NCBI GenBank assembly: GCA_963701855.1
Contig: CAVPBK010000006.1
Location: 576,001-640,000, forward strand
DNA: 64,000 bases
DNA from: Nitrospirota bacterium
GTDB taxonomy: Bacteria; Nitrospirota; Nitrospiria; Nitrospirales; Nitrospiraceae
Direction: 5' to 3'
The notes beneath the pieces are model-generated. The model worked only from the letters and a program-made list of their open reading frames with translations. It did no database searches and had not been told where the DNA came from. The position numbers were made by a program, and so were the translations under genes. The stretch's first letter is position 1, and each line of letters begins with the position of its first letter. Of this stretch, positions 1,988 to 63,640 are shown piece by piece.

Positions 1988-2110
1988 GGGATGGAGCCTG
2001 ATGATCTTATGTGCTCGCGCAACGCGCGGCCTCCGAAGGCCCTCGTTGGACGCGCACAGTGGAAGATCAATCAGCCCCCATCCCTGAAGAGAGAACGAGC
2101 GAGCTTGGAG
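1988..2110 (-). repeat. Structured hairpin repeat family A
   Basis: Reverse complement of the ACTG(C/T)GCGCGTCCAACGAGGGCC...GGCCGCGCGTTGCGCGAGCAC unit found at about 30.0, 59.0 and 60.9 kb. Confidence 0.85.
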
Positions 2111-3051
2111 GGAACACTGTAAAGCGGTACTTAATCGAATTCGCGCACCGAAATACATTCCTGCTATTCTCTGCGAGAAAGAGAGTGTGGTATTGAGTAG
2201 CAATGCCGAACCCTCCACCGCTTGCAACTTATATCTCCTTCAGAGCGTTCACAGGTGAGTCCTGCACACCTGATGAACTCAAAACATTCCTATCTAAATT
2301 CTTAAGAACTGAGGTTCTGTTCTTATGCGCTCTGTTGAATACAATTCTGGAAACATGGAGTGGCAAGATTCGGCGCGATGTGCATGACGATCTAATAGGC
2401 ATGGCTTTCTTGCCTGACGATGCAAACCGCCTCAAAGCCATAATATCAAAATCAACCGAGCCGGCATTCGTGTTTCACCGCCTGCAGATATTGTTCATCG
2501 CAAAGCAGGCTGTCATGAACTGTCATGACGACGGCAATGTTATTGATCCCTCGAACCATCTGCATTGGGGAGGTCTTGGCTTAGCTTTCTTAATGGCAAA
2601 CGATCTTCTTCATTTCGAATTTAATGACACGGAAAGAACTCTCCCACATTCACTGATAAGGATGGCTCACTCAATCCCAATGATGGAGTCCTCGGGAAAA
2701 ACCTCCTTGAACTACAAAGCGGGAAGGGCTTGGTTGATGCTAAAACAATTTAGCCCTTCTCCCCATAGCAAGGGTTATATCGATGTTGAGGGAGCTTTCA
2801 ACGCCGCAACTGGCCTATCCACTGAGGACTACCTATCACTTTGCGTCGGTATGGTGAGCCATTATCTTTCACTGGACTTCGAGCGCCTCAGGAAGAAAGA
2901 GGACAGCATTATGATAACCAAAGAATGGTTCACAAAAGCTGGGATCCGTCCCGTAACAGTGGATCACTTTTTTGAGGAGGTCTCCGCCTGACCCTCCCCT
3001 GATTTCATAGACACCTCCATAAGTGGGAGAATGATGAAATCGGAGGTCAGC

Positions 3052-3348
3052 ATGCCAAAAATAACGCGACGTCAGTTTACTGACGCATTCAAGTCCGAGG
3101 CAGTCCGGCTCACGCGGGAATCGGGCCGGCCGGTGGCCCAGGTGGCTCGGGAACTTGGGATTTCTGACAATGTGCTGTATCGCTGGAGGAGCGAACAGCA
3201 ACAGGTCGAATCCCAGGGCCGCACGCGCCAGGCGGTGCGGGTCGAGCAGGACGAGCTGACACGGCTCAAACGAGAAAACGAGACGCTGCGGAAGGAACGG
3301 GATTTTTTAAAACGTGCGGCGGCGTTCTTCGCGAGGGAATCCCAATGA
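3052..3348 (+). CDS. IS3 transposase OrfA (HTH)
   Basis: RRQFTDAFKSEAV...VARELGIS..LYRW; GGAGG RBS; TTTTTTAAAA candidate -1 slip site near 3303; ATGA overlap with orfB. Confidence 0.92.
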   Translation: MPKITRRQFTDAFKSEAVRLTRESGRPVAQVARELGISDNVLYRWRSEQQQVESQGRTRQAVRVEQDELTRLKRENETLRKERDFLKRAAAFFARESQ

Positions 3349-4208
3349 GATACCGCGCGATCCAGGAGCATGACCGTCGCTATCCGATCCGGTTGATGTG
3401 CCGCGCCCTCGCTGTATCGGCTGCGGGCTATTACGCGTGGCGCATACGGCCCGAGAGTACCCGTTCGGTGTCCGCCCGGACCGTGCTCTCGGCCATCCGG
3501 GTGATCCATCGAGAGTCCCGCGAGACCTACGGCAGTCCCAGCATCTGGGACGCCTTGATCAAGCAGGGACACCGCATCGGTGAACATCGCGTGGCCCGGT
3601 TGATGCGCCAGGACGGCATCCGTGCCAAGACCGTGAAGAAGTGGCGAGCCACGACGCAGTCCCATCATCGGTTCCCCGTGGCGGCGAACACCCTCAATCG
3701 CCAGTTCACGGTCGAGGCTCCAAATCGGGTATGGGCCGGGGACCTCACCTACGTGTGGACTACCGAGGGCTGGCTCTACCTCGCCGTCATCCTCGACCTC
3801 TACTCGCGCACCGTGATTGGCTGGGCCATGGGCACCAGGCTCATCGGAGATCTGGCCGAACGTGCCCTCATCATGGCGCTGGCGAACCGGATACCCGCGA
3901 CTGGGCTCCTGCACCATTCGGATCGCGGCAGTCAGTACGCCGCCACGAGCTACCAGCGTCTGCTCGGCGAGTATGGCATCATCACCAGCATGAGCCGCAC
4001 CGGCAACTGCTGGGACAACGCCTGTGTCGAGAGCTTCTTCGGGACACTCAAGCGCGAGCTCGTCTACCATCGGCATTACGCAACCCGTGAAGACGCGAAG
4101 CAAGACATCTTCGAGTACATTGAGGTGTTCTATAATCGGAAGCGCCGTCACTCGACCCTTGGCTATGTCTCCCCGGCCGAGTACGAAGCGAGGACGGCTG
4201 TGGCTTAA
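3345..4208 (+). CDS. IS3 transposase OrfB (rve DDE domain)
   Basis: WAGDLTY, HHSDRGSQY and DNACVESFF DDE motifs. Confidence 0.95.
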   Translation: MRYRAIQEHDRRYPIRLMCRALAVSAAGYYAWRIRPESTRSVSARTVLSAIRVIHRESRETYGSPSIWDALIKQGHRIGEHRVARLMRQDGIRAKTVKKWRATTQSHHRFPVAANTLNRQFTVEAPNRVWAGDLTYVWTTEGWLYLAVILDLYSRTVIGWAMGTRLIGDLAERALIMALANRIPATGLLHHSDRGSQYAATSYQRLLGEYGIITSMSRTGNCWDNACVESFFGTLKRELVYHRHYATREDAKQDIFEYIEVFYNRKRRHSTLGYVSPAEYEARTAVA

Positions 4209-5356
4209 CCCGGTGTCCACGGAATCGGGGGAAGGTCAGCCTTCCCCGATACGTTAGCCACTCGCTTCTCATCGAGAGACGGGGGTCCCTCCGACATGAC
4301 TTGGTTTCGCGACAAGCCTGTCTGCAGACTAAGGGAGGATGCAATATTTGCGTTGGACACGAAATGTCTTACGGAAAAACTAGATTCGGGGATTTTCTGG
4401 CGCGTGCACTCTCATTTGAAGAGTGGAAAGGACAAAGACAGCCTTCATAACTACTGGGGAATCGCATTTGAAAACTACCTCAACTGGCTCCTTGGACAGG
4501 CCTGCAGGGATAGCCGAAACAAATTCTATCCATCCCCTCATTACAAAAAGACGGGAGAGGAGGTCTGTGATGCTATCGTTGTTTGTGGCACGTCGGCCGT
4601 GTTTCTTGAATACAAAGGAAGCACATTTACTGCAACTTCAAAATACAAAGGAGATTTAAACGAACTTGCAGCAGAGATTGAAGAGAATTTGATTGGCACA
4701 GAATCGAAGCGGAAAGGTATTAGGCAATTAGCGAATGCCATCCTTGGCGTATTCGACAAGCAAACTCCTACCGTTGTCGCAGATGTTGACCTTTCAAAAG
4801 TCAGTACCATCTATCCCGTGCTCATTACACGGGACGAAATTGGCGGATGTTTTGGCATCTCGCCTTACCTAAACAAGAAAGCAGAAGCCTTCTTTTATCG
4901 GCGAAAGATCAAACCAAAAATTGTCACACCTATCTTTTGCCTTTCAAGCGAAGGGATCGAGACAATTTCAGCATATCTTCAGGATGACACTCTGTCTCAT
5001 CTTCTCCAAGGATGGTACAGGGAAGACCCAGGCCTCCATTGGTCGTTTCCCGCAGTAGAGGATTCTGTCATTGGCTCTCGTGGTTACAAGACGAACTCGG
5101 ATCTCGACACTGCATTTAACCAGGTGTTTGAGAATGCTATACGAGTCTTGTTCCCAAACTCGAAGCCTACCAGCCTCTCTTGAATTATGGAGGATAAAAG
5201 GTGCTGAGAACCATTCTTTTCATACTTGTAATCGCTCACCCCGTTTGATTCCCTTCTCGCTTAATTAAATAGTGGACAGCCAACCATGTAATAGCCGATT
5301 CTAATCGCCGGCGGGATATAAATGACCCTTCTCAGGTCGCTCGCTACTCTCTCCCC

Positions 5357-5455
5357 AGGGGGTGGCCTCCGATTGTCCTCTACTGCGCGCGTCGGACGAG
5401 GCCCTTCCCAGGGCGCGCGTTCCGCGAGCAAAGAGGACATCGGAGGCCGCCCCCT
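5357..5455 (+). repeat. Structured hairpin repeat family A (divergent arms)
   Basis: AGGGGGTGGCCTCCGATTGTCCTCT-ACTGCGCGCGTC...CGCGAGCA-AAGAGGACATCGGAGGCCGCCCCCT. Confidence 0.8.
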
Positions 5456-5516
5456 CTTCCCCCTTCTAATGGGGAATACCTTCCCCTCGTCCCGACTCCG
5501 TTAGACTCTCCCCTCC

Positions 5517-5879
5517 ATGGAACAGACCAGGCCCTACCAACGCAGCCTCTACCGCCTGACAGTCACCTGCCCAGTGATGTACTGTGTGACGTCGACGGTC
5601 GGCGAAGGAACGATTAAAAATCTTTCGGCCGTGGGATGCACGATCGAAACGGGCCAACCCCTGCTGACAGACCAGAACGTCGCATTGCGCCTGATGCTCC
5701 CCGATCATCACGAGTCGCTACCGATCGATGAAGCCTACGTGCGGTGGGTGCATGGTAATCTGGCTGGAATTGAATTTGTCGAAGTAGAACGTACCGCGAA
5801 TCTCCGGCTGCACGGTTTCGTATGGGATGGGATGGTCCAACACTTCCAGTCGATTCAACAGAAGCGCGCAACATCTTAG
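5517..5879 (+). CDS. PilZ domain protein
   Basis: RxxxR (RSLYR) and NxSxxG (NLSAVG) c-di-GMP motifs; VRW and GIEF strands. Confidence 0.85.
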   Translation: MEQTRPYQRSLYRLTVTCPVMYCVTSTVGEGTIKNLSAVGCTIETGQPLLTDQNVALRLMLPDHHESLPIDEAYVRWVHGNLAGIEFVEVERTANLRLHGFVWDGMVQHFQSIQQKRATS

Positions 5880-5944
5880 CGGGCTACGGAAAAACCATTT
5901 TGGCATAACAGCGCTTGAATAGGGGCAAGGGGAGAGCTTCTCCG

Positions 5945-6070
5945 CAGGATGCTCAAAAAGTCCGTCTAGCAAGGCCGCAGCGCGTGAAGGCCCGATGCGT
6001 ACCCTTGCGGTACGTTGAGGGTCAGAACGATGCGAGAACGACTCTGGCGGACCCTTAAGGCATCCAGCTA
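5945..6070. mobile_element. MITE-like repeat family B (CAGGATGCTSAAAAAG ends)
   Basis: Left end CAGGATGCTCAAAAAG, degenerate right end; internal sequence shared with 7223-7405. Confidence 0.7.
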
Positions 6071-6075
6071 GGGAA

Positions 6076-7095: not shown

Positions 7096-7222
7096 GCTAG
7101 GCTAGAAACCCACGGTGAGAACAAGCAGAGTAGGTTATAGGGGAACGTATCGTTATCTCCACTCCTTCAGCAAGAGAGCGCTTTAATGGCCTACACGTCT
7201 GGGACAAAAGGCGTATACGCTG

Positions 7223-7405
7223 CAGGATGCTCAAAAAAGGCCGTCCAGCAAGGCCGCAGCGAGCGAAGAGGCGAGGAGGTACCAACCACACTTTGTGTGG
7301 CCGTTCGCCCGTAGCATGGGTCTTGGCGAACGGAAAATACCCTCCAGTACTTCCGAGCCTCTGAGCGATGCGAGAACGACGCTGGCGGACTTTTTCAGCA
7401 TCCTG
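7223..7405. mobile_element. MITE-like repeat family B
   Basis: TIRs CAGGATGCTCAAAAAAG...CTTTTTCAGCATCCTG; abuts the TAA stop at 7406. Confidence 0.8.
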
Positions 7406-8833
7406 TTAAGCACGGGTCCTGGCGGACGGTCTGATGACCCAGAGCATCAGGAGCGAGAACACCACAGATCCGGTCGCGGCCAGACCGAGAAACCAATCGA
7501 GCTTGCCGATCACAGCGAACACCAGCACGACGACGGAAAAATCCCGGCTCGCGACGTTCTTAAGCATGAAGTCCGACCAAGCAGCCTGCACCGGTGTCTT
7601 CCATCCATTCGAAGACTTGATCCTTTGCGCACGAGTGACGAGCCAAAATGAGAGCCCATTTCCAAGGACCGCTGCCGCACCCAGAGCAAGAGGAACCCAG
7701 GCATAATCGGTTCCAGCCATACGCAGGTAGGAGCCCGTGGCAATGCCGGCAAAGATCGCCATGTGCACCACGTTGTCCATTGTGATATCGAGCCAGGCCC
7801 CGAACGGCGATTCGGTAAACGTCAGCCTGGCCACTTCCCCGTCACAGCAATCGATGACCGCCGCCAGTTGGAACAACAACGCGGCCATGATGCCCGCGCT
7901 GTAGGTCCCGACGCCAAAACCGGCGGCCGCGGCCAACCCAACCAGGGTCGCCAGGATCGTGATGACATTTGGCGAGAAGCCTGCGGCGAGAAAGATACGC
8001 GTGAACCAGCGGGAGACCTTCCGATTGAAGTACCGGTCGACGAAACCCTCGAACTCGCTTTTGAGGGAATTGAACAGCTTCCTCTCAGCGGCCTTGACAT
8101 CGACAGCATCTCTCACGTCCTGATACCAGTGGGAGCGGTTCGTCTCCGTAGATATCACCCGCACATGCCCGTCCACCGCAGCCCGCTCGAGCCATGGACG
8201 AATCGGCAACGTACCGGTTTCCACATCGACTTGGCCGACAGTGCGCATAAAGCCGGATGGAACTACCACCAGATCTGTCGCTACCAACGCTGCGTCGTCC
8301 TGTTTCGATGTGATCGAGAGGAGTCGTCCTGCCTGCACCTTCATACGCACACTCGACCGTCGTGACTGTCGGTCTCGCTCGCTATCGGCTCGTGCCACGA
8401 CGATCGCCTGGCCCTCTTGCACCTCATGGCGCAGGCTCTCGATCAAGGGGCCAGCAAACACCCCCTGTACGCCGGACAGGAGACAGAAGCCGCGAATTTC
8501 AGAGGCCAGCGCCTCCCATGTGCGTGGATCATCCAACGGAAACTCACGAATCGGCAACCAGCGCACAGGAATTGTCACGCGTGAACCTTTGCTCAACGCC
8601 TGTTTGAGCTGATCTTCCTCTGGCCCGACCAACACCATAAGCTGTCGAATACCGGCGCGCTGCAGTGTCAACACCGTCCGCTGAAACAGGCCTATGCCCA
8701 CCACGCTGGTGAGCGGACCCACCTCCCCGGCGTACAATCCAGCCGGCTCACCGAACAGACTCACTGACGGCAAGAGAATCGCCGTGTTTAATCCCTGGAG
8801 GCCTGTCTGCTTCTGAACTGTGCTCTCGCTCAT
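7406..8833 (-). CDS. CDP-alcohol phosphatidyltransferase with a degenerate N-terminal nucleotidyltransferase-like domain
   Basis: DCCDGEVARLTFTESPFGAWLDITMD matches DG-x2-AR-x8-G-x3-D-x3-D; SPNVIT motif. Confidence 0.88.
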   Translation of the reverse strand: MSESTVQKQTGLQGLNTAILLPSVSLFGEPAGLYAGEVGPLTSVVGIGLFQRTVLTLQRAGIRQLMVLVGPEEDQLKQALSKGSRVTIPVRWLPIREFPLDDPRTWEALASEIRGFCLLSGVQGVFAGPLIESLRHEVQEGQAIVVARADSERDRQSRRSSVRMKVQAGRLLSITSKQDDAALVATDLVVVPSGFMRTVGQVDVETGTLPIRPWLERAAVDGHVRVISTETNRSHWYQDVRDAVDVKAAERKLFNSLKSEFEGFVDRYFNRKVSRWFTRIFLAAGFSPNVITILATLVGLAAAAGFGVGTYSAGIMAALLFQLAAVIDCCDGEVARLTFTESPFGAWLDITMDNVVHMAIFAGIATGSYLRMAGTDYAWVPLALGAAAVLGNGLSFWLVTRAQRIKSSNGWKTPVQAAWSDFMLKNVASRDFSVVVLVFAVIGKLDWFLGLAATGSVVFSLLMLWVIRPSARTRA

Positions 8834-8935
8834 GATCGGACGATCCTTCGTATTCGGGGGAAGGGCTATTCCAAATCACCCCGCCATCCTAACCGCCAGT
8901 ACCCCGTTTACCCCGATACTCCACTATCCCCGCTG

Positions 8936-10734: not shown

Positions 10735-10838
10735 AACACCCCCCGTTAATCGTTAACCGTACAATGTTAATCGCAGAAAGGGCCAACCTTCATTCTTTAG
10801 TCGAACTGCCATTCACAAATACCGTTGTTCGAGTCACG

Positions 10839-11417: not shown

Positions 11418-11449
11418 CGATCCTGCTCCTTCATCGCCCCCTCACACCG

Positions 11450-11947: not shown

Positions 11948-12067
11948 GTATCGAATCCTTGCCCCAACGCACATAGAAAAACCGGCGCATTATAAGCTAT
12001 GCCTTCGGACATTCTCAACAAAACTGCGGGAGTTGCGCCATACGATTGGCCATGGTAGCGTTCTGCC

Positions 12068-12601: not shown

Positions 12602-12602
12602 C

Positions 12603-13142: not shown

Positions 13143-13178
13143 CTGACACCCCCTGCCTACCTATCTGAAGCATCTTAG

Positions 13179-13440
13179 CGGGATGCTCAAAAAGTTCAGA
13201 CTTCTCACCCGCCCAACCCTGGCGCGCCAAGACGCGCCGTTCCACAGGCAAAGCCGCAGACGATGAAAGCACCGGAGGCGTAGCCTCTTCTCACCCGCCC
13301 ACCCCAAGCTGCCAAGACAGCTTGTTCTCCGAGTGGGCTACGTTGAGGATGCTTTCGAGGTGAGAACGCTGCCTGGCGAAAGGCGCGTCTCGGCGCGCCA
13401 GGGTTGGGCGGGTGAGAACGGAGACTTTTTCAGCATCCTG
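13179..13440. mobile_element. MITE-like repeat family B with internal CCCGCCCAACCCTGGCGCGCC inverted repeats
   Basis: Preceded by TTAG; TIRs CGGGATGCTCAAAAAG...CTTTTTCAGCATCCTG. Confidence 0.8.
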
Positions 13441-13602
13441 CCTGGAAACCCTTGCCAATTGTGCCAGGACCCCCTACTCCCCCCTCTTCCGATGGGGCTT
13501 TTATCCCCTCTCATTGGGGATTGTTGAAATTTTTGAATACGGTATTCTCAAACTGTCGCCGGGGGATAGCAGAACCTCGGCGGAACCACTGAGGAGGCAC
13601 TG

Positions 13603-14019: not shown

Positions 14020-14047
14020 GCATCGATCCAACACCACGGAGAAAATC

Positions 14048-14446: not shown

Positions 14447-14475
14447 GACCGTAACAGGAGCACGGAGGTGTCCTC

Positions 14476-14862: not shown

Positions 14863-14889
14863 ATCGATTGCCTGCTCACGGAGAACTCG

Positions 14890-29008: not shown

Positions 29009-29120
29009 GCATCGGAGTATATCGAAGCGTTCGTCGGAAAAACAAGGAGCCTTCACTTTTAGCTCGATGGTGAGGAACGGGAAACGCTACAATTTATTGG
29101 AATGAGTAAACAGTCTATTT

Positions 29121-29731
29121 CTAGCGACGATGGCTACTTCTGCGCGATTCTTTCTTCGGAGGTTGAAACGTGCACACAGGAACAAGATGGCTGGCCTCGA
29201 TCAGATAGAAGGTTGTTCCGAGATGTGGTAGATCTCCTGCTCTTTCTTCTACCGTATCCCAAGTCACTACATATATATGTGACACCGTTTTTGTGATGCT
29301 AACAGAGTCATGCCTCTTCAGGTCAAAGAGGTGGGCAGGCTCTATCGAAAAAAATGGTCCAGCCCTGTATAGAGATTGGATGTGACCTCATCCAATACAT
29401 CTTTGCCTTCAGGACCTAGGTACAAGTTTTCGAACTGATACTGCCCAGTAAAAAAAGTTCGACGAGATAGACGCTGCAATGATCCATCATTCTCGAACTT
29501 AATTTGGACTGTGGCAGTGGTATCCGAAAGCTGCTCCCACTCAATAGGGATTTCGTTTGGCACGATTGGAAAGTCAAATTTTGAGGTGGGACACTTGTGC
29601 TCCAAAGACTGAAACGTTTGTACCCAGCTCCGAATTGATGCTGCAGAGGCAGAGCAATTCCAAGCAACAACTATAAGACTAAATGCTAGAAGAAAATTAC
29701 GACTCATGATGCGGATTATACCAAGGGTCAT
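29121..29731 (-). pseudogene. AT-rich secreted-protein gene frameshifted at a T7 run
   Basis: Signal peptide; stop right after T7 (A7 at 29348-29354 on +); one extra T would open the frame to TAG at 29121. Confidence 0.55.
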
Positions 29732-29839
29732 CCATATGGCCTCTCTTATTCCTCATTCTCCCAGGGACTACACTCGTGATTGGGTCCACAGCGCCCGTTG
29801 ATCTAGCACGCCATTTTTAAGGGAGAGGGGTTTTGTTGG

Positions 29840-30075
29840 TCTCCCACTGTGCGCGTCCAATGAGGAGTCCCCAACTCCCTATTCTCCTCTCTTTAGGGAG
29901 TGGCCGAGGCTGCCCTTTACTGCGCACATCGAACGATATACATGCTCCCTCCAAGCTTGCTCGTGTTTTCTCTAGGGATGGGGGCTGATTGATCTTCTAC
30001 TGCGCGCGTCCAACGAGGGCCTGCCGAGGCCGCGCGTTGCGCGAGCACAGAAGATCATCAGGCTCCATCCCCCGC
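29840..30075 (+). repeat. Structured hairpin repeat family A (compound)
   Basis: Three ACTG(C/T)GC(G/A)C(A/G)TC cores. Confidence 0.85.
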
Positions 30076-30152
30076 TCCGTTTGACAGCCTCCGGGCCATT
30101 TGCTACGCTCCGCGCCGGTTCAGCGCCTGTCGCAGCACAGGTAATTTATCCC

Positions 30153-34788: not shown

Positions 34789-34799
34789 CAGGACTCAAT

Positions 34800-34926
34800 C
34801 AGGCTGCTGAAAAAGCCCGCCAGCTGCGTTCTCCCCTCGAAAGCATCCTCAACGTAGCCAGGAGGCTACGCCTCCGGTGCTTTCATCGGCTGCGGCCTTG
34901 TTGGACGGACTTTTTGAGCAGCCTGC
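34800..34926. mobile_element. MITE-like repeat family B
   Basis: CAGGCTGCTGAAAAAG...CTTTTTGAGCAGCCTG. Confidence 0.78.
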
Positions 34927-41990: not shown

Positions 41991-42359
41991 GTGTTCCTCC
42001 TTCCTGCTGTGGAGGCCCTACATCCCGTGGTGCCGACGGCGGCGCTTTCCGGGCCGCACATGCTTGATCAGCGACCCGTAGGGCGCCGGGGCGACCGGGG
42101 CGGCCTGCTGCGACATGACACAGGCGGGGTTGGCGGCACAATTTGGGATGCATTCCATCCAGATCATGGCACCGAATACCAGAGCACAAATATATTGGTT
42201 TTTGAACCGGCCCAAGGATAGTTCAAATCATTCAGAAAATCGACCCGCAGCCCTCCGGATTTCAGAGGGGGATTTTGAAGCAGTCAGGCGGACATTCCTG
42301 CAGGAATGGATTTTCGAAATCCCTAGTGCTCAAGAGAACACAGCAAAGAACAGGCGCAT

Positions 42360-42965
42360 CGAACCCACGAGGCTACAGACAATCTCTCCAAGCTCGCTCG
42401 TATTCCCTCTCTTGGAAGGGCATCCATGTTGGTCTACGTGCGGCCGTCGATTGCTTGCCCTCATCTACCCATTCTCAGCGAGGAGACTGGCATAGTCTCT
42501 ACTGCGCGCATCGAGGGACCACCGCTTTATCGTGGGGCCTCTGCGAGCACAGAGACTAGTCAGCTTCCTCGCCTCCCTCCTTCTCAGGGCGTGCGTTCCG
42601 GGAGCACAGGCACCCATCCCATTCTTCTCATTTTTCTCCACTTCGCCCTCAAGGGGAGCAGCCAGACTGTCCTTCACTGCGCGCATTGAGGGAGCACATT
42701 CTGATCGTGCGGCCTCAGCGAGCAAGAAGGATGGTCTGGCTACTCCCCTCCCATTCTTCCTTGTTTTTCCCCCACTTCGTCCCCAAGGGGAGTGGCCAAG
42801 GCTGCCCTTTACTGCGCGCATCGAACGATATAGATGATCCCTCCAAGCTCGCTTACTTTTCCTCTCTTGGAAGGGCACTCATGTTGGTCCAAGTGCGGCC
42901 GTCGAATGAGGCACTTCTTATGGCGCGCGTTCCGGGAGCACAGGGCCAACGTGGGTGTCCTTCCT
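42360..42965 (+). repeat. Cluster of structured hairpin repeat family A units
   Basis: At least three ACTGCGCGCAT cores (42501, 42676, 42811), each with different flanking arms. Confidence 0.85.
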
Positions 42966-49677: not shown

Positions 49678-49922
49678 AGGGAGTCGCCGGACTGTCCTTC
49701 ACTGCACGCATCGAGCAACCATGGTTTCATCGTGGGGGCTCTGCGAGCAAGAAGGATGGGCCTGGTTGCTTCCTCCTCATCCTTCTGAGCCTACACATTC
49801 TCCTTGAAATCTACTCTCCCTAAAAGCGGGGTGACCAGGCGCGCCTCAGACTGCGCGCGTCCAACGAGCACCTTCCAAGCGTGCGCGTTGCGCGAGCACG
49901 TGAGGTGGTCGGCCACCCCGCA
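49678..49922 (+). repeat. Structured hairpin repeat family A (two units)
   Basis: ACTGCACGCATC...GCGAGCAA and ACTGCGCGCGTC...GCGAGCAC with distinct arms. Confidence 0.8.
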
Positions 49923-51340: not shown

Positions 51341-51514
51341 GCCACGGTCCTTTCTAGCAGGATGCTGAAAAAGTCCGCCAGTCTATCTTGTTCATTTAGT
51401 CTGTCTGGTCTATCTGGTTAGTCACATGCACCCAACCAAACTAGACAGACCAGATAAACCAGATGACCGGACGGCAAACGCTTGTAGCCTAGCATGCGTG
51501 CCTCGGAGGCGCAC

Positions 51515-54055: not shown

Positions 54056-54145
54056 ATCACCTCAGAAGGAGTCTGAGTAGAAGTCCTGAGTTTTCGGACT
54101 CACAGTAGTTCAACACTCAGAACTCAGCACTCAGAACTTTCGAGT

Positions 54146-54796: not shown

Positions 54797-54876
54797 ATCG
54801 ACTCCTTTCTTAGATCAACGCGGCTCGCCCATTATAGCGAATAGGCCACGAACTTACTCTTTGTTATACTGTGGCC

Positions 54877-55419
54877 ATGCCGGACAAGTTCCTGGCAAAT
54901 TCGCTGCTATCTGCCCTGTCCCTGCTCATCACGCTCACAGGATGCGCCTCGATGCAAGAAGCGGAGGACAGACAGGGTCTCACCTTTCTCCAAGTCAAGA
55001 CAACACCGGATTCTTTTAAAGGTCAATCGGCGGTCTTCGGCGGAAAAGTGTTGACAGCCAGGCGACAGAAAAACGGCACGAGGATTGAGATCTTACAGTT
55101 GCCGCTCGATCGATCACTGCGCCCCGTATACGACTTGACCCAGTCACAAGGCCGCTTCATAGCCGTGCAGCGAGAATTCCTCGATCCCGCGACCCTCCCG
55201 CCGGGAACCAGCGTCACCGTGACCGGCGAGATCTCCGGCACCATCACACTGCCATTGGATGAGACGGACTATACCTATCCCGTCATCGACATCAAACGTG
55301 TGCAAGTTTGGCCAAGATTTGAAGACGTGCCTCCCCATATCCGCCCCTATTATATGGGGCCAGGTCCCTATTGGGGACCTTATTGGAGCCCCTTCTGGCG
55401 GCCTTGGCCCTACTGGTGA
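54877..55419 (+). CDS. Slp family outer-membrane lipoprotein
   Basis: Lipobox LTGC; FGGKV, EILQLPL, SQGRF, FLDP, VTVTG, YTYP. Confidence 0.87.
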   Translation: MPDKFLANSLLSALSLLITLTGCASMQEAEDRQGLTFLQVKTTPDSFKGQSAVFGGKVLTARRQKNGTRIEILQLPLDRSLRPVYDLTQSQGRFIAVQREFLDPATLPPGTSVTVTGEISGTITLPLDETDYTYPVIDIKRVQVWPRFEDVPPHIRPYYMGPGPYWGPYWSPFWRPWPYW

Positions 55420-55420
55420 G

Positions 55421-55672
55421 CAGGATGCTGAAAAAGCCCGCCAGCAGGGGATGGGATAGCCCGATGAGTCCCCTGTGCTCGCGCAACGCGCGGCCTAGGA
55501 AGGCCCTCGTTGGACGCGCGCAGTGGAGGACTCATCCGGGCCACCGGGGATAACGTACACGAGCAAGCTTGGAAGGATCATCTTTGGTCGCTCCCTGCGG
55601 CCTTGCCCTGGCAAGGCGCGTCTTGGCGCGCCAGGGCCGGGCGGGTGAGAAGGTCGCCATTTTGAGCATCCT
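55421..55672. mobile_element. Family B MITE carrying a family A hairpin
   Basis: CAGGATGCTGAAAAAG...ATTTTGAGCATCCTG; internal TGCTCGCGCAACG...GACGCGCGCAGT. Confidence 0.78.
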
Positions 55673-55860
55673 GCGAGAGCGTTCTCCTGTGACGCTACAT
55701 GTACGGACCATCGAAATTCTTGCGTGCCTCAATAGTTTTTCCGTAGGCTGCAGAAACAGCAACGCCTCGGCTCCTTCTGGGCTTCCGAGGCATTCAGTTC
55801 ATCTCCATCGCGGTCAGCTCGATCAAGGCAGCTCAACTCTTTATCCTGCTCGCACAATCG

Positions 55861-56922: not shown

Positions 56923-57338
56923 GGTCAGCCAGCCTGTCTTGCTCATTTGGTCTGTCTGGTCTGTCTCGTTTATTTGGTTTATTTGGTTTGTTTGGTTGAA
57001 CCGATCAACTCGATGAACTAAACAAACCAGATAGACCAACCAACCGAGAAACCAGATGAACCAGCTGGACCCGCACCAGTCCAGCAAACTATAAACGGCA
57101 GCAACCATGAAATCAACGAAGGCGCCTGACTGCAATGATACGCGAAAAAACATTCGAGGATGAGCAGCCGGTTCGGCGAGAGGGAAGAATGATCATCAGC
57201 GAGCATGAAATGGATGCGTGATTGTAAGACATGGCCCCCACCTATTGACGTGGGCAAGAGTGAGAGGCGTTCCCTACCCTATGCAAGGAGATAGGACCAT
57301 TGTGAGGTGACCCAACCCGTGTGACCTGCAACGGGTAA

Positions 57339-57578
57339 TTAAACGGTGGTTGCTTCAAGCGATCGAATCTTTTTCTCAATGGCTCTTGGAAAATTTACAA
57401 AGACGAAGTGGGCCTTGTGATAGAGGTAATCCTCTCCACTTTCATCCATGATCCGCACCAGATCGTCCTTGGCAGCTTGTGGGTCTGGGATGATTAGATA
57501 CACCTTGCCAGGAATCAAAGAGGCTTTATAGTCGGTGTTATCCACGCAGAGGGCGAATGATTTTGCTAGGTGTCTCAT
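57339..57578 (-). CDS. Small conserved protein with DESGEDYLY motif (putative antitoxin/immunity)
   Basis: FALCVDNTDYKASL..GKVY...RIMDESGEDYLY; ATGA overlap with the upstream partner. Confidence 0.75.
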   Translation of the reverse strand: MRHLAKSFALCVDNTDYKASLIPGKVYLIIPDPQAAKDDLVRIMDESGEDYLYHKAHFVFVNFPRAIEKKIRSLEATTV

Positions 57579-57750
57579 GATTCCTCCAAGTACCGCTTGA
57601 TTTTGAGATCCCGCTTTCCTATACCGTGAGCTTCATACCAATGAATCTCTACCATTCGCAGTGCACCGTTCGGCAACCGGACAGTCGCGATTCCTTTCAG
57701 CTTCCGCCAGCGGCCTGGACCGTAGGCCTTGCGGAGATAGCGCCGGACCG
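57575..57750 (-). pseudogene. 5'-truncated putative toxin (GRWRKLKG...HWYEAHGIG family)
   Basis: YGPGRWRKLKGIATVRL...EIHWYEAHGIGKRDLKIKRYL; its N-terminus is replaced by attC-like DNA. Confidence 0.65.
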
Positions 57751-57786
57751 TCGGGCGCGACGGCTCCATTTGCGTGTTAGCCCGCG
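57745..57786 (-). other. Left half of an integron attC site
   Basis: CGCGGGCTAAC-ACGCAAATGGAGCCGTCGCGCCCGACGGTCC; the inverse core contains the TAA stop of the DUF3800 gene. Confidence 0.65.
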
Positions 57787-58610
57787 CTCGGATCATCCGG
57801 TAAACCCTTTGCTCGTCGGTCATCTCTCAAGTACTTGTCATAGTCGGCAGAGGTGTGGTGATCGGGGATGACTGCAACTGTCGGCATATCAATCACACAT
57901 AGCCGTTCGGCTGAGATAATCTCCATAAACTTGATATCACGGGGCTTTAGTTTCCCTTTGCCAAGTAGCCATTGGCTCCGGCCAACTGCGAAAGCAGCGA
58001 AGTCGGCCAGTTGCAAGAACGGGCATTCATGAGATCGACGAAACTTGATCTGACTCTCTTCAAAGACGTCCGCCCACCAAGGTAGCTTCAATGAGCTGTC
58101 GGCCTTTACCAGACCCTCATCGATAATCACTGGAAGTGGTCTTCTGAAATGCTGCTCGTGCTCGAGCATGAATCGCCGCACTCGAAACAAGAGGAAAAGC
58201 AGTGCGAAATGATCATGCCGACTCATATTTAGAAAGCCGATTCTCTGATCTAGTGTAAATTTGGATCTTATCTCTGATAGGAATGCCGGTGAGCTCGTTT
58301 GAAAGAGTATCGGAAGCTGGAACTGTTCGAATATGGTGGCCATGAGATCCATGAGTTCGAATCTCTGCTCGATTGAGGTATTTTGAAAGGAACCACGCCC
58401 GCTATATATATCCGTGAAGTGAAGTTCGTTTGCCGAATAGTTGCGACGAATTCCCTCGAGAAAGATTTCTATGCCAACTCCCACGTTGGAGGCAGCATCG
58501 TCGGGGACAATGACAGCCGCCCACGACTTCCTGTCGCTGTGCAAGAAATCGGATGGCGACTCGGCACCTGGCGTACCGGCGTCATCAATGTAGATTCCAG
58601 CGGACATCAC
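57777..58610 (-). CDS. DUF3800 (RNase H-like fold) protein on a gene cassette
   Basis: IYIDDAGT, ELHF, IIDEG, LQLADFAAF. Confidence 0.85.
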   Translation of the reverse strand: MMSAGIYIDDAGTPGAESPSDFLHSDRKSWAAVIVPDDAASNVGVGIEIFLEGIRRNYSANELHFTDIYSGRGSFQNTSIEQRFELMDLMATIFEQFQLPILFQTSSPAFLSEIRSKFTLDQRIGFLNMSRHDHFALLFLLFRVRRFMLEHEQHFRRPLPVIIDEGLVKADSSLKLPWWADVFEESQIKFRRSHECPFLQLADFAAFAVGRSQWLLGKGKLKPRDIKFMEIISAERLCVIDMPTVAVIPDHHTSADYDKYLRDDRRAKGLPDDPSAG

Positions 58611-58618
58611 ACCAAGTT

Positions 58619-58690
58619 CGCGGGCTAACTATAATTAGACTGATCCGCATAAGATGCGGATCTCTGTTCTCTGTCCGTATAACACGCCTT
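58619..58690 (-). other. Candidate attI-like site / cassette core site
   Basis: GTCTAATTATAG|TTAGCCCGCG on the minus strand; perfect palindrome GATCCGCAT-AAG-ATGCGGATC at 58642-58662. Confidence 0.5.
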
Positions 58691-58856
58691 GGAATTTCTT
58701 GCCGAAGGCCTGTTAACCCCTCTGCTTTCAATTGTTTACTCCCTGCCGCGGTTTATCGGCATCGAAAACAGAAACGGGGACATTCTGAATTGTTGCGGGA
58801 AGCCGTTCAGATCACGTGACAAGAAAATCAGAATGTCCTCGCTTCTTTCGCCCCGC

Positions 58857-59065
58857 AGGATGCTCACAATGACATCCCAGCATGGCCGCAGGGAGCGACC
58901 AAAATGATCCTTCAAAGCTTGCTTGCTTACTTTATCTCAGTGATGGCCGGATGAGTCCCCCACTGCGCGCGTCCAACGAGGGCCTTCTTAGGCCGCGCGT
59001 TGCGCGAGCACAGGGGACACACCGGGCCATCCCATCCCCTGCTGGGGGACATTTTCAGCATCCTG
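58857..59065. mobile_element. Family B MITE carrying a family A hairpin
   Basis: CAGGATGCTCACAATG...ATTTTCAGCATCCTG abutting the TAG stop at 59066. Confidence 0.78.
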
Positions 59066-59830
59066 CTACGGGCGTCGGTTGGAACCTGTGATGGCCTGTT
59101 TAAACACCGTGCGGAGGCCGAAGTAGGCAACGGAATCTTTGAGGTTGGAGTACAGCCGCTTGAAGGTTCCCATGTCCGGGTTGGTGACGTATTCCATCGT
59201 TAAGGCGATCCGTTCTTCTCCTTCGCCAAGTGGAGTCACCGAATGCCAAAGCTTATCTCCGTTGAAGATGACGAGATCGCCTGGTTGTGTGATCAACTCC
59301 AGATGCCGAGGGACTTTCACAGGATCATCCTTAAACAGTTCGCAGACCAGTTTGCATTGCGTAGACTTATCGACGAGTCCCATCAGAATGGTGTAGCGAG
59401 CCCCTTTGTAGTAGGAGGTGTCATAGTGAAACCCGATATGGTCTCCCGGCTCCGTGTAATAGTAGAGCGCGCAGGAATGGGGATCGTTCTCAGGGCATAG
59501 ACTGAGCTTGGTCCGAACCAGACGGCTCAAGAATTCGATGAAGGCCCCGGATCGATACAGATCGAGAAAGCGCGGGGCCTTCTCCATCACCGTGTAGTAG
59601 CTCACACTCCCACCCTTCTTATGGCCGGGAATGTAATTGCGATTCAGCAGGCTCTTCACCCCCTGCGCTTGAGGAACGAGGTGTTCTTCCACCACCGACC
59701 GGGGAAGAAACTGTGGAATAAACAAGAACTCGTTCTGGTCCCAATACTCACGCGAGACTCGATCGAGATCCAACCGCTTGACTGCTTCATCCACCGTTTC
59801 AACGAAAGAACCGACCATTGACTGATTCAT
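59066..59830 (-). CDS. 2OG-Fe(II) oxygenase
   Basis: HYD...H facial triad (FHYDT, LWHSVT) and RIAL. Confidence 0.85.
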   Translation of the reverse strand: MNQSMVGSFVETVDEAVKRLDLDRVSREYWDQNEFLFIPQFLPRSVVEEHLVPQAQGVKSLLNRNYIPGHKKGGSVSYYTVMEKAPRFLDLYRSGAFIEFLSRLVRTKLSLCPENDPHSCALYYYTEPGDHIGFHYDTSYYKGARYTILMGLVDKSTQCKLVCELFKDDPVKVPRHLELITQPGDLVIFNGDKLWHSVTPLGEGEERIALTMEYVTNPDMGTFKRLYSNLKDSVAYFGLRTVFKQAITGSNRRP

Positions 59831-59999
59831 AGACTCACCCTTCCCTCAATCGCCCACTAGGCTGCTGAAAAAGCCCGTCAGCTCGTCTTGTTCATTTGGT
59901 TCATCTGGTTTGTCTGGTTTTTTGGTGGGACGAAACTAACCAGATGAACCAGATAAACAAAACGAACCAGATCAACCCTCCCGCATCCCGCGTCCACAA

Positions 60000-60734
60000 T
60001 CACTGCGGAGCACTGAACACCGGAGCCTTCACCACTTCCACACCGTCCGGCAACTTCAGAGTGAAGAGCGGGTCGCCGAGACCCGTATTGGGTTGAAGCG
60101 ACGAAAACTCAAAACTCGCGACATTGCCACTGATTTCGTAGAGGGAGATCGTCCGAATAAAATAGGTTTTCGGAAACACTTCGAGCACGATCCGTTGTAA
60201 GGATTTCCCCGCTTCACCTTCATGCGACTTCGGCAGGAGAGTGAGGAGCCGGATTCCTCCCACGCCACGTCCCTTCCCCGGCGTCGGCTCAATGTCGAAC
60301 GACTCATCCAGTTTGGCTGCCCCCAGCAACAGCTCCAACGGAGCCTTGGAGGCCGCCATTTGCGTGAGCTTTCCGACCAACACTTGTTTGTGCTCCGGCA
60401 CATACACCTTCACATCGTCCCGATTGACATAGATATCCTCGACTGAAGGATCGAGATAATTCCACCGTAACCGGCCAGGTTTTTTGATATAGACCTTCCC
60501 TGAGGACATGATCGGCCGCTCGAACCCCTCGATCGTGGTCTTCTGCGTAAAATCTGCCTGGAGATCTTTCGTTTTCTCATACCGAGCCTGGAGCTGCTTG
60601 ACCACCTCTCGCACTTCCGTCAAGGCATTCTCATCGAACTCTTCAGCGCCGGCAAGAGTCGGCAATGGGAATAGGCTCAACGCACACACGAGCACGCCTC
60701 CTACACAACTTCTCCAATTCAATTTCTTCATCAT
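60000..60734 (-). CDS. lolA: Outer-membrane lipoprotein chaperone LolA
   Basis: LQADFTQ, SGKVYIKKPGRLRWNY; directly downstream of ftsK. Confidence 0.88.
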   Translation of the reverse strand: MMKKLNWRSCVGGVLVCALSLFPLPTLAGAEEFDENALTEVREVVKQLQARYEKTKDLQADFTQKTTIEGFERPIMSSGKVYIKKPGRLRWNYLDPSVEDIYVNRDDVKVYVPEHKQVLVGKLTQMAASKAPLELLLGAAKLDESFDIEPTPGKGRGVGGIRLLTLLPKSHEGEAGKSLQRIVLEVFPKTYFIRTISLYEISGNVASFEFSSLQPNTGLGDPLFTLKLPDGVEVVKAPVFSAPQ

Positions 60735-60744
60735 ACCAATCGCA

Positions 60745-60929
60745 AGGGGAATGGCCAAGGCTGCTCTTTACTGCGCACATCGAAGGAGCACTATAATATT
60801 GCTCCTTCCAAGCTTGCTCGTTATCTCTTCAGGGATGGGGCCTGATTGATCTTCCACTGTGCGCGTCCAACGAGGGCCTTCTCAGGCCGCGCGTTGCGCG
60901 AGCACAGAAGATCATCAGGCTCCATCCCC
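60745..60929 (+). repeat. Structured hairpin repeat family A (two cores)
   Basis: Fills the ftsK-lolA intergenic space. Confidence 0.85.
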
Positions 60930-63344
60930 TCATACCCCTTCCTCTGCCCCCACCGGCCCTCGCCGCCCAACCACCTCTCTCCGCCCATCGCGACCAGCCG
61001 CGCCCACGAGGCCATCCGCCTCCATTTGCTCGATCATCCGCGCCGCCCTAGGATAGCCCACCCGCAGCCGGCGCTGAATCAGCGATGCAGAGGCTGAACC
61101 GGTAGATAGGACCAACTCTTTGGCTTGCTCGTAGACTTCGCCCAATCCTTCTTCCTCTTTCGCCCCTTCCTGTTTCAGCGCGATCTGCAACTCCTGATTG
61201 TAGGCAGGCTTGGCTTGATCCTTCACGAACTCGACCACGCGGCGGACATCGTCATCCGACACAAACGACCCGTGCAACCGCATGACTCGTCCGGTCCCCG
61301 AAGCCATATAGAGCATGTCCCCACGGCCAAGAAGCGCCTCCGCGCCGTTCGCGTCCAGGATGGTGCGGGAATCGGTCTTCGACGACACTTGGAACGCAAT
61401 GCGGGCCGGAAAGTTCGCCTTGATCAAACCGGTCAGCACGTCGACCGACGGGCGCTGCGTCGCCAGCACGAGATGGATGCCCGATGCGCGGGCCATCTGC
61501 GCCAAACGCGCAATCTTGTCTTCCACTTCCTTCGGCGCCACCATCATCAAATCCGCCAATTCATCGATCATCACGACAATATACGGCAAGGGTTCAGGCG
61601 GAGTCGGCGGCGGTGTGAATGATCCGGGGCTGCCATCCGGAAGCGCGGTCTCTCCGGCAGAGAGCCGGTCCTCTTCAGACAGAAACTGGATGGGCAATTC
61701 CGGCTGGTCCAACTTGGCTGCCGATTCCGTATCCAGTACACCCTGCTTCCCGGCGACTTTTCGATTATATGTATCGATGTTTCGCACCCCTGCCTCAGCC
61801 AGCAACTTGTAGCGCCGTTCCATTTCAGCGACGACCCAACCGAGCCCCCGCGCCGCCGACTTGGGGTCAGTGATGACCGGCCGTAACAGGTGAGGAATGC
61901 CGTCGTACGTTTGAAATTCGAGCATCTTGGGGTCGATCAAAAGTAGCTTAACCTCATCGGGTCGAGCCGAAAACAGCAGGCTCAGGAGCATCGTATTGAG
62001 ACTCACACTTTTCCCTGCCCCCGTAGCGCCGGCGACCAGCAAGTGCGGCATCGTTTTCAGATCGGCGACCATGGGGGTTCCAAAAATGTCTTTCCCTAAG
62101 GCCAAGCTGAGCTTTGATCTGGCGCGTGAAAATGCGTCGCTCGTCACCACTTCCTTCATCGACACTGTCTCGCGATAGAGATTCGGCACCTCGATCCCTA
62201 CCACAGATTTTCCCGGAATCGGCGCGACGATCCGGAGGCTGATCGCCTTCAGTGCCAACGCCAGATCGTCGGCGAGGTTCACAATGCGCGCGACTTTGGT
62301 CCCCGGCCCCGGCTCGAACTCGTACATCGTCACGACTGGTCCGGGGCGAACTTCTGTTACCTTTCCCGCGATGCCGAAACTGAGCAGGGCGCGGGTCAGT
62401 ACATCGGATTGCGCCTTGATTTCTTCTTCCGTGACACGCCCTAGGGGGCCTGACGGTTCGCTCAAGAGCACGGCCGGATCCGGCAAGATATAGTCTCCCG
62501 CCTTCGCTTGGGCGACTACGGCCTGTTGGTCAGACTCGGTTTCAGTCGGCTCAGCCGGCTCGGGAGTCGGTCGTCGTGATGGTTGAATGACCGGCCAATC
62601 CAATTCCGGCTCCGCGACCGCCTCAGGAAGCGCCTCCTCAATCACCGCACGAATGGCTGTAACCGATTTCTGTTTGGCCTTCCTTGGAGACTCAGAAACC
62701 GCTTCTTCCACCGGCCGATCCGGGATCAAGGTACGCGCCCTGTTGAACATCCAATTGCCTAACCCGGGAAGCCGCCGAGCAATCTCCAACAGAGAGATGG
62801 GCGCCGTGAAAAGGAGCGAAACCAGTAGTCCCGCCACGATCAGAATGTGGGCGCCGGTACTCGCAAAGTAAGCCCGTAAACTTTCAGCCAATACTTGTCC
62901 GAAAAATCCTCCCGCCATCCCTCGGTAAATAAGACCGCTAGAAACCGTCGGCACCGCCATGATTTCGAGATGGAACAAGCTGCTGAGAAACAGCAATGCC
63001 GCCAGGGAGGCGCCGGCATTCCGCAGACGGATCGATAGGTCGCTCTGAGTAAAACAGCGGACACCCATGAGACCGAGGAGAATAGGAAACAGGTAGGCGG
63101 CCCCGCCGATCGACCAGAATAAGGTAGATGCGAAGAACGCGCCGGCCGACCCAATGAGGTTTCTGGGCGGAGGCGTAGCAGTTGCCCCAGCCTTGACCTC
63201 CCCTGGAACAAAGGACAGCAGGCTGAGCAGCGTCAAGAGCGCCAACGCGATCAGGACGACTCCGATCACTTCTCGTTTGATGTGTGAAGGGGAGGAAGCG
63301 GCGCCGCGGGGCTCACCCCGCTTGGCCGAAGTGGTGACAGCCAT
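60930..63344 (-). CDS. ftsK: DNA translocase FtsK
   Basis: 4TM N-terminus, GATGAGKS, IDELADLM, ATQRPS, gamma domain SASLIQRRLRVGYPRAAR. Confidence 0.96.
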   Translation of the reverse strand: MAVTTSAKRGEPRGAASSPSHIKREVIGVVLIALALLTLLSLLSFVPGEVKAGATATPPPRNLIGSAGAFFASTLFWSIGGAAYLFPILLGLMGVRCFTQSDLSIRLRNAGASLAALLFLSSLFHLEIMAVPTVSSGLIYRGMAGGFFGQVLAESLRAYFASTGAHILIVAGLLVSLLFTAPISLLEIARRLPGLGNWMFNRARTLIPDRPVEEAVSESPRKAKQKSVTAIRAVIEEALPEAVAEPELDWPVIQPSRRPTPEPAEPTETESDQQAVVAQAKAGDYILPDPAVLLSEPSGPLGRVTEEEIKAQSDVLTRALLSFGIAGKVTEVRPGPVVTMYEFEPGPGTKVARIVNLADDLALALKAISLRIVAPIPGKSVVGIEVPNLYRETVSMKEVVTSDAFSRARSKLSLALGKDIFGTPMVADLKTMPHLLVAGATGAGKSVSLNTMLLSLLFSARPDEVKLLLIDPKMLEFQTYDGIPHLLRPVITDPKSAARGLGWVVAEMERRYKLLAEAGVRNIDTYNRKVAGKQGVLDTESAAKLDQPELPIQFLSEEDRLSAGETALPDGSPGSFTPPPTPPEPLPYIVVMIDELADLMMVAPKEVEDKIARLAQMARASGIHLVLATQRPSVDVLTGLIKANFPARIAFQVSSKTDSRTILDANGAEALLGRGDMLYMASGTGRVMRLHGSFVSDDDVRRVVEFVKDQAKPAYNQELQIALKQEGAKEEEGLGEVYEQAKELVLSTGSASASLIQRRLRVGYPRAARMIEQMEADGLVGAAGRDGRREVVGRRGPVGAEEGV

Positions 63345-63387
63345 GCGCGCGATGCTAGCACAGGGAATCGGTCATTTCAAACGAGAG

Positions 63388-63640
63388 GAGGGGATGGAGC
63401 CTGATGATCCTCAGTGCTCGCGCAACGCGCGGTCGCGGACTCCCCTCGCCTGGGCTAATGGCACGTCCCGGGAAATCGATTGCGAAGCAATCGGAGGGTA
63501 GGGCGGGTGAGAAAGTTACGCGCAGTGGAAGATCAGTCAGCCCCCATCCCTGGAGATAACGAGCGAGCTTGGAGGGATCATTTATATGGATGGTGGTCGC
63601 TCTACGTGCGCAGTGGGGGGCACATCCAGACCATCTCCTA
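63388..63640 (-). repeat. Structured hairpin repeat family A (compound)
   Basis: GGGATGGAGCCTGATGATC..TGCTCGCGCAACGCGCGG ... GCGCAGTGGAAGATCAGTCAGCCCCCATCCC. Confidence 0.8.

Follow-up and report, generated by a model that had tools for sequence, protein, structure and literature searches.

A lineage-specific family of covarying, self-nesting hairpin repeats in Nitrospira genomes

The 64-kb stretch of Nitrospirota bacterium DNA considered here (contig CAVPBK010000006.1 of assembly GCA_963701855.1, positions 576,001 to 640,000; hereafter the window) carries an abundant intergenic hairpin repeat. The neighbouring genes are ordinary: they include ftsK, lolA, htrA and nikR, and genes for a polyprenyl synthase and a PilZ protein. 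Copies are recognized by a conserved motif, ACTGCGCGCRTC. Allowing at most one mismatch, the window has 14 occurrences where 0.83 would be expected by chance, and none of 100 shuffled sequences reached 14. An earlier inspection of the letters alone (the sequence-only reading) had placed this hairpin at nine or more intergenic loci, and all window matches fall at the loci that it named. Several of its copies are 5′ halves only, and it overlooked a leader segment, the mosaic build of the repeat, the nesting of copies and their replacement between close relatives. Folding each window core with its flanks yields 10 complete hairpins of 91–99 nt, and half, split and interrupted copies are present besides them. 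Three window copies folded against shuffled sequences gave z-scores of −6.2, −8.5 and −7.8 on the strand that reads ACTGCGCGC, referred to below as the top strand.

The unit is about 97 nt long. A 49-nt core (ACTGCGCGCRTC … YGCGAGCA) lies between arms of about 24 bp, which are variable yet complementary. Of the 58 best-paired units, 56 have a core of exactly 49 nt, and hairpin length peaks at 96–98 nt. Read from the outside inwards on the top strand, the stem consists of the outer arm, an AC internal loop, the pairs U-A, G-C and C-G, a G·A mismatch and four further pairs, the last of which is G-C in 77 copies and A-U in 52. Further inward follow a UC bulge, five pairs, an A·G mismatch, a four-pair inner stem and a loop of 6–9 nt. 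Within the five-pair segment the first pair is G-C (68 copies) or C-G (62) and the third is A-U (109), G-C (18) or C-G (7). Four core subtypes recur, A to D. Type-A cores carry GTCCAAC … GTTGCGC; types C and D have AGC/GCT in place of the AAC/GTT pair. The arm pairs quoted in the sequence-only reading and its inner stems (GGCC/GGCC, GCCC/GGGC and GCAC/GTGC) are found in the copies. So is the single unpaired base that it described outside the core, at a distance of 7–8 bp in five of the ten complete window copies, including those at 5357, 42480 and 60832.

Complete hairpins lie at 1988–2084 (−), with a type-A core (GTCCAACGAGGGCC..GGCCGCGCGTTGCGCGAGCA) and a leader at about 2085–2125 (−); at 5357–5455, behind a leader at about 5312–5356, the pair spanning 5312–5455 (+); at 42652–42749 (+; GAGGGAGCAC..GTGCGGCCTCAGCGAGCA); at 49678–49774 (+), of type C; and at 49826–49921 (+). 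The type-A copy at 29975–30071 (+) follows a composite at 29821–29974 (+), in which two 5′-half copies (core starts 29846 and 29919) precede a leader (motif 29951–29961). At 42355–42625 (+) a remnant and a leader (motif 42388–42398) are followed by a split type-D hairpin (core start 42438). Another complete hairpin (42478–42572, (+)) is nested in this copy after GTCGA, and the outer 3′ core ends at 42606. The composite at 42787–42963 (+) comprises a 5′-half type-B copy (core start 42811, cut after GAACGA), a leader (42843–42853) and a complete type-D hairpin at about 42868–42963. The spacer between ftsK and lolA is filled by a similar series at 60746–60928 (+): a 5′-half copy (core start 60770), a leader (60808–60818) and a complete type-A hairpin (60832–60928). 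At 63388–63640 (−) the core of a type-A hairpin is broken after ACTGCGCG by a 69-nt segment, module X; upstream on the minus strand lie a leader (63562–63572) and a 5′-half copy (core start 63614).

The same components recur throughout the host genome (4.30 Mb, 15 contigs, 55.6% G+C), which holds 136 compact cores and 215 matches to the 5′ motif. All 136 compact copies fold as hairpins. A leader of about 45 nt (TAYAAATGNTCCCTCCAAGCTYGCTCGTT..CTCTYCA) precedes 50 of them and includes a TATAAA/TATACA-like box about 45 nt upstream. Nineteen of these leader-plus-hairpin units follow a 5′-half copy cut after CGA or after the loop, nine follow a complete copy and 22 follow other sequence. At some 20 loci a full hairpin is succeeded by a type-A 3′ half beginning in its loop. 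Pairing of the leader with the 3′ core (GCTCGC/GCGAGC) was considered and dropped, as type-D copies show no compensating change.

Two further components complete the mosaic. Module X (CTTCTCACCCGCCC…; also CTTCTCACCCGCCCAACCCTGGCGCGCCAAGACGCGCC…, itself a small hairpin) has 83 motif matches in the genome and occurs in two settings, namely inside hairpin cores, between ACTGCGCGC and GCCCRGGCGAGGG, and inside a repeat with GCAGGATGCTSAAAAAG inverted ends. Its window sites are 13200–13420, 55639–55653 (−) and 63446–63515 (−). The second component is this repeat, bounded by terminal inverted repeats (TIRs): it measures 130–260 bp between inverted ends GCAGGATGCTSAAAAAG … CTTTTTSAGCATCCTGC and can itself carry the hairpin. 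It is found in the window at 5944–6000, 7222–7406, 13178–13441, 34799–34926, 55420–55674 and 58855–59066. The copy at 55420–55674 (−), with GCAGGATGCTSAAAAWG ends, contains module X, a leader and a complete hairpin (55455–55545 (−)); that at 58855–59066 (+) contains a leader and a complete hairpin (58940–59033). Other long tip inserts are also present in hairpins. In all composites the extra material sits at the tip, and arms and core are intact. Copies therefore nest in each other's loops and ride in the TIR-bounded repeat.

The TIR repeat has features of its own. Sequences about 90% identical to its left end lie at many sites in the genomes of the genus that were searched, and two of its ends in the window abut stop codons, that of Slp at 55417–55419 and that of a gene ending at 59066. 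A gene for a DUF3800 protein (57777–58610 (−)) adjoins the hairpin-carrying repeat at 58855. A third repeat type, rich in CCAGATA/GGTCTAT-like words (e.g. CTGGTTTCTCTTGTTTGGTTGAACCAAATAAACCAGATAAAC), lies elsewhere in the genome, at C4:94453–94550 and C3:125779–125934. It stands at one site where the close relative described below has a TIR repeat, and at another as tip cargo in a hairpin.

Covariation in the stem was assessed with 136 aligned copies, 10 from the window and 126 from other Nitrospira genomes, against a structure of 38 pairs. The 126 were drawn from the first 130 loci listed in a scan of public genomes; four of these loci that have no inner consensus (L011, L018, L100 and L108) were left out. 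The invariance of six core pairs is largely by construction, because the copies from other genomes were chosen by exact match to both core motifs. The covariation estimate is conservative, because the MAFFT alignment was not fitted to the structure. Standard pairs fill 84.5% of 5114 cells compared with 71.1% after shuffling (0 of 500 shuffles as high). The covariation score is 0.427 compared with 0.196 (again 0 of 500), and it falls to 0.169 or below when partners are slid by one to three columns. Compensatory changes on both sides occur in 30 of the 38 pairs. The covariation expected by the sequence-only reading is thus strong by pair counting, which was used in place of R-scape.

The two strands are not equivalent. 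When paired arms are aligned with equal scores for G·T and A·C, and pairs are named as they stand on the top strand, G·T exceeds A·C by 188 to 108 in this genome (118 of 136 copies with paired arms) and by 171 to 98 in other genomes (116 of 128). The excess of wobble pairs noted by the sequence-only reading is real, although only moderate. It persists, at 203 to 114, once 264 copies are collapsed to 150 arm families. Single-copy departures from the Watson–Crick pairs of a family comprise 64 G·T, 38 A·C and 59 other mismatches. The ratio is 131 to 82 where the top strand lies on the C-rich strand and 57 to 26 where it lies on the G-rich strand; this bias in both replication orientations means that a replication-linked mutation bias is no explanation. 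Computed with DNA energy parameters, the top-strand fold is more stable than that of the bottom strand in 127 of 136 copies, with a mean difference of 3.2 kcal/mol. The flanks are also asymmetric: on the top strand, pyrimidines dominate the six bases next to the hairpin on each side, and at most 7 of 129 copies have G at each of positions −6 to −2 and +2 to +6. At position −1, 78 of 129 copies have A, and the edges read YYYA upstream and CYCC downstream. Together these asymmetries suggest that one strand functions in single-stranded form. The constraint to fold acts on the ACTGCGCGC strand, and its unpaired AC loop, G·A mismatch, UC bulge and A·G mismatch are kept while the pairs around them covary. 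The selection on a single-stranded fold proposed in the sequence-only reading is backed by both lines of evidence. Fold-back resynthesis of one arm from the other was rejected, because members of an arm family share the same bulge and mismatches. Four chimeric copies (L023, L109, L119 and L125) have arms of two families joined at the core.

The family is lineage-specific, abundant in the genus and rare in its sister genera. Public genomes searched with the core pattern gave at least 130 loci, and among the 80 listed loci shown with a source record, nearly all sources are Nitrospira or Nitrospiraceae. An exact-pattern census of 81 genomes of the order, in which the reversed pattern used as a control matched nowhere, found 39–70 copies per genome in five of five genomes of the genus and one to eight copies in 13 of 23 genomes of sister genera. 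Two other families of the order had none (0 of 27 and 0 of 5 genomes), and a fourth family had the pattern in one of 21. In another count the hairpin was found in 18 of 18 genus genomes. In the low-copy genera the copies are complete hairpins, each with its own paired arms. The core pattern had no match in viral contigs. Rfam (15) gave no match at the gathering score over the window and only chance-level matches at E-value thresholds, so the repeat is not a known Rfam family, a point that the sequence-only reading had left for checking. No tRNA gene overlaps the window hairpins, and the portions of the literature returned by a full-text search contained no description of the hairpin family.

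Changes in the family can be followed by comparison with a relative about 95% identical (G015), which is colinear with the window at about 92–97% over most blocks. At 42.8 kb the type-B hairpin is intact in G015. In the window its 5′ arm and the core up to GAACGA are kept, a leader and a type-D hairpin follow, and identity with G015 resumes exactly after the 3′ arm. The reverse case is found at 574.8 kb of contig C6, where this genome has the hairpin intact; in G015 a half copy is followed by a leader and a type-A hairpin. At 58.9 kb of the window a leader and hairpin stand where the G015 TIR repeat has a 46-nt segment; likewise, at 119.5 kb of C1 a leader and hairpin replace the internal segment of a TIR repeat with almost identical flanks (the segments at the two sites span 46–56 nt). 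At 5.4 kb both genomes have a similar leader and conserved tail around different hairpins, that of G015 being about 230 nt with core-like ends. At 49.85 kb one core base and both arms differ, and at 49.70 kb the copy intact here is truncated after CATCGTG in G015. The 69-nt module X in the core at 63.5 kb corresponds to CGTCCAA and an uninterrupted core in G015, a length difference of 62 nt. On C4, a breakpoint at 102.2 kb separates the loop from the 3′ inner stem, and at 94.4 kb the site is filled by different repeats in the two genomes. In the window, a segment of about 1 kb at 29026–30079, with an open reading frame (ORF) and three hairpin copies, compares with 84 bp in G015; the ORF (129 aa, 29342–29731 (−)) has no Pfam match. 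Core motifs are present in G015 at places that match window 55524 and 60770/60856 by position, as distinct from a base-by-base alignment. Where copies have changed, the event is a cassette-like replacement that has its breakpoint at the hairpin tip and a 3′ boundary that is fixed.

Some neighbouring features deserve mention in their own right. The 1-kb segment lies directly upstream of the polyprenyl synthase gene, whose TTGACA box follows the last hairpin. The region 933–5453 measures 4.5 kb here and 2.1 kb in G015; it includes an IS3-family transposase gene (3345–4208, rve domains), and a MazF/PemK-like toxin gene lies near this difference, at 1302–1640. The region around the DUF3800 gene, 57120–59040, measures 1920 bp compared with 1421 bp in G015.

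The gene context of the 136 copies was determined by crude ORF calling after masking of repeats. Copies are enriched between divergent genes (51 of 136, compared with about 20% of spacers); 21 lie between convergent genes. In tandem contexts 36 are sense and 28 antisense, so there is no sense or antisense preference. An antisense bias in the first ORF calling (45 versus 17) disappeared after masking; spurious ORFs running through the repeats had produced it. In 87 of 136 copies the gene downstream has the same orientation as the repeat. With respect to replication, orientation is skewed: 98 copies have their top strand on the locally C-rich strand and 38 have it on the G-rich one, and orientation along the contigs agrees. 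A possible reason, in line with work on palindrome instability, is that the more stable fold may be lost more readily from the lagging-strand template. Tails of 129 copies are mixed C/T, with no T run 3′ of the hairpin. In two scanned regions no sigma-70-like site was found at the leader and no terminator matched the hairpin of about 97 nt; the sole match there, at 60829–60845, is a 5-bp stem in a 5′ arm. A TTGACA (−35) box just downstream was considered as a target and discarded, since only 2 of 136 copies have it. A search of sequencing runs returned one metatranscriptome, which holds 6% of the words.

The explanation that we favour, at about even confidence, is a lineage-specific family of small, non-coding, non-autonomous hairpins, mobile or recombining, that act as single-stranded DNA in the manner of repetitive extragenic palindromic (REP) sequences and bacterial interspersed mosaic elements (BIMEs). 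The account runs as follows. (i) The arms of about 24 bp and the two halves of the 49-nt core form the stem and would serve as the ends of the element. (ii) The tip is a site that tolerates cargo, and it may attract insertions. (iii) The conserved core may be the recognition site of a putative trans-acting protein other than the genome's Y1/HUH gene products. (iv) The target of this protein would be the folded single strand, probably of DNA that becomes exposed during replication. (v) Strands would be cut or break at the tip. (vi) Tip breakage would then allow incoming leader-plus-hairpin cassettes to overwrite resident copies or nest in them. Ordinary homologous recombination among the many copies probably also contributes. 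A more specific version, which we regard as improbable, makes the hairpin the substrate of a new single-strand machinery distinct from Y1/HUH enzymes. Such machinery would read the mid-stem core of the folded ACTGCGCGC strand, cut the tip and copy leader and hairpin into resident copies, starting at a fixed 3′ end and joining at a variable 5′ junction. Such ends recall target-primed or rolling-circle copying, and the process could even pass through RNA.

Several observations weigh against the favoured explanation, foremost that no mobilizing enzyme was found and that no transposase is linked to the hairpin family. RAYT, or TnpA-REP, is the Y1 HUH transposase of REP elements. The genome has four Y1 (HUH) genes, three near-identical IS200-like genes and one RAYT-like gene of 229 aa, and no hairpin core lies within 1.5 kb of any of them; the copies beside a RAYT or TnpA gene that the sequence-only reading suggested looking for are absent there, and no core motifs stand beside the three IS200-like copies. 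The RAYT-like gene lies outside the window (C11:87040–87726; locus L134 1189–1878 (−)) and is flanked by its own perfect 25-nt inverted repeat, AAACGGTGTCAGGAACAGTTTTCTA, with 11 motif copies in the genome. This repeat is a small REP-like family unrelated to the hairpin. The gene occurs in 9 of 27 genomes of a hairpin-free family and was not found in two genus genomes (G001 and G088) that hold 41 and 54 hairpins. The IS200-like gene is present in only 8 of 41 genus genomes, and no TnpB was found in the genome. No target-site duplication was seen at the flanks of 129 copies, and no copy with protein-coding cargo and no recurring neighbour gene was found. An IS608-like mechanism predicts a folding strand on the G-rich lagging-strand template, and here 72% lie on the C-rich strand. 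The G·T excess (about 1.7 to 1) is modest, and more deamination on the non-transcribed strand might also give it. In four further 20-kb regions 36 core-motif matches lie in colinear blocks with G015, 11 in gaps and 2 in G015 only (a loose count that includes chance matches), from which it follows that the majority of copies remain stable at this distance. Plain gene conversion among the repeats, without a dedicated enzyme, could account for much of the turnover. A search of the genome for an IS91-type Y2 gene gave no match but is uninformative, its positive control having matched nowhere, and reverse transcriptase matches at four places (three or four genes) are not tied to the repeats.

Gene conversion of this kind is the basis of a rival account in which the palindromes are passive. 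Host processes, namely hairpin breakage at replication, SbcCD-type cleavage and ectopic gene conversion, would alone keep old repeats alike and shuffle them, and copying of whole hairpins would keep the arms complementary. Breakpoints at the tip and in shared sequences (core, leader, tail and TIR-repeat flanks), the chimeric copies joined at the core and the lack of a linked transposase all suit this account, and differential loss would fit the replication-strand skew. It leaves unexplained why one genus has 39–70 exact-pattern copies and sister genera have 0–8, why the core is near-invariant across some 150 arm families, and why the constraints are strand-specific. We consider it unlikely. 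A further rival is a structured RNA module, in which the ACTGCGCGC strand is transcribed from a weak leader promoter or as part of neighbouring transcripts, its internal loops bind a protein or RNase, and spread by recombination is secondary. Compensatory changes in most pairs, preference for G·U-compatible changes on one strand in both replication orientations, invariant unpaired nucleotides and pyrimidine-rich, almost G-free flanks agree with it, as do the co-orientation of the downstream gene in 87 of 136 copies and the TATAAA/TATACA-like box of the leader. The leader, however, precedes only 50 of 136 copies. The two scanned regions show neither a sigma-70-like leader site nor a matching terminator, T runs are lacking, Rfam is silent at both kinds of threshold, and tandem contexts are 28 antisense to 36 sense. 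Hairpins are moreover swapped at the same site between close relatives, and their orientation tracks replication, which an RNA role does not predict. An RNA module is a rather unlikely alternative on this balance.

The cassette-like replacements with fixed boundaries could instead suggest an attC-like folded single-strand site, a possibility raised in the sequence-only reading, at which a tyrosine recombinase would recombine hairpins and exchange the segments between them. The imperfect hairpin, its conserved extrahelical bases and tips of variable length are in keeping with such a site. Integron attC boxes have the consensus RYYYAAC/GTTRRRY, which GTCCAAC … GTTGCGC of type A resembles. Yet AAC/GTT gives way to AGC/GCT in types C and D, and the conserved boxes occupy the mid-stem rather than the hairpin base, 24 more base pairs lying beyond them. 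The best integron integrase match (TIGR02249) scores 80.8 bits, below the cut-off of 265. Gene-cassette arrays are lacking; ordinary, mutually unrelated genes lie between copies, and the ORFs between neighbouring copies share only one paralogue pair. An attC-like site is thus very improbable. The first suggestion of the sequence-only reading, a REP-like HUH substrate, holds in that the family resembles REP and BIME repeats in kind, but not as regards an enzyme, since the four Y1 genes are neither flanked by the hairpin nor co-distributed with it.

Nitrospira are key nitrite oxidizers and complete ammonia oxidizers, and their genomes are mostly known as fragmented metagenome bins. A repeat that nests in itself and has 40–70 or more copies is likely to cause breaks in assemblies as well as rearrangements. 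The mechanism might be caught in action through the replacement events seen between close relatives. If the new single-strand machinery proposed above were real, it would represent a new self-homing mode of bacterial non-coding elements.

Among described repeats, the hairpin family works like REP/BIME sequences or foldback MITEs (miniature inverted-repeat transposable elements), yet it does not conform to REP-RAYT systems, IS200-derived palindrome-associated transposable elements (PATEs), TIR MITEs, attC sites or any Rfam family. Intrinsic terminators differ in their T run, which hairpin tails lack, the only terminator-like match in the two scanned regions being the 5-bp stem within a 5′ arm. 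With integron attC sites the family shares imperfect, strand-specific hairpins of variable length with conserved boxes and unpaired bases; it differs in having no IntI above the cut-off and no cassette arrays, in its mid-stem conserved part and in the fact that AAC/GTT is not universal. The PATEs of IS200/IS605 origin ('peel and paste') also combine a hairpin of one strand with a replication orientation bias. They have distinct left and right ends, whereas the family has one symmetric hairpin, and its folding strand lies mostly on the C-rich strand, opposite to the PATE expectation; IS200-like TnpA is sporadic (8 of 41 genomes) and not adjacent to hairpins, and no TnpB was found. Correia/NEMIS repeats of Neisseria and ERIC/IRU repeats are likewise non-coding intergenic hairpins, 100–150 nt long, that have pairing ends and nest or carry inserts. 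Unlike foldback and TIR MITEs, the hairpin family showed no target-site duplication, parent insertion sequence with the same ends or coding version; its terminal arms are not conserved between copies, and its constraints are strand-specific. The closest likeness in kind is to the REP, BIME and REPIN repeats of Enterobacteria and Pseudomonas, which are abundant, intergenic, non-coding imperfect palindromes, form mosaics, are lineage-specific and are thought to act as folded single strands. With 136 compact copies in 4.3 Mb, the hairpin family is likewise abundant. A REP unit is about 35 nt, compared with about 97 nt here, and REP sequences accompany their RAYT gene, whereas these hairpins neither flank the RAYT-like gene nor share its distribution. 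In REP sequences the stem itself is conserved, including a 5′ tetranucleotide; in the hairpin family 264 copies fall into about 150 arm families, and only the mid-stem core is fixed. A fixed mid-stem core between freely covarying arms is the REP architecture reversed, with constraints on one strand, and the family therefore provides a clean natural system for finding a protein that reads a folded single strand.

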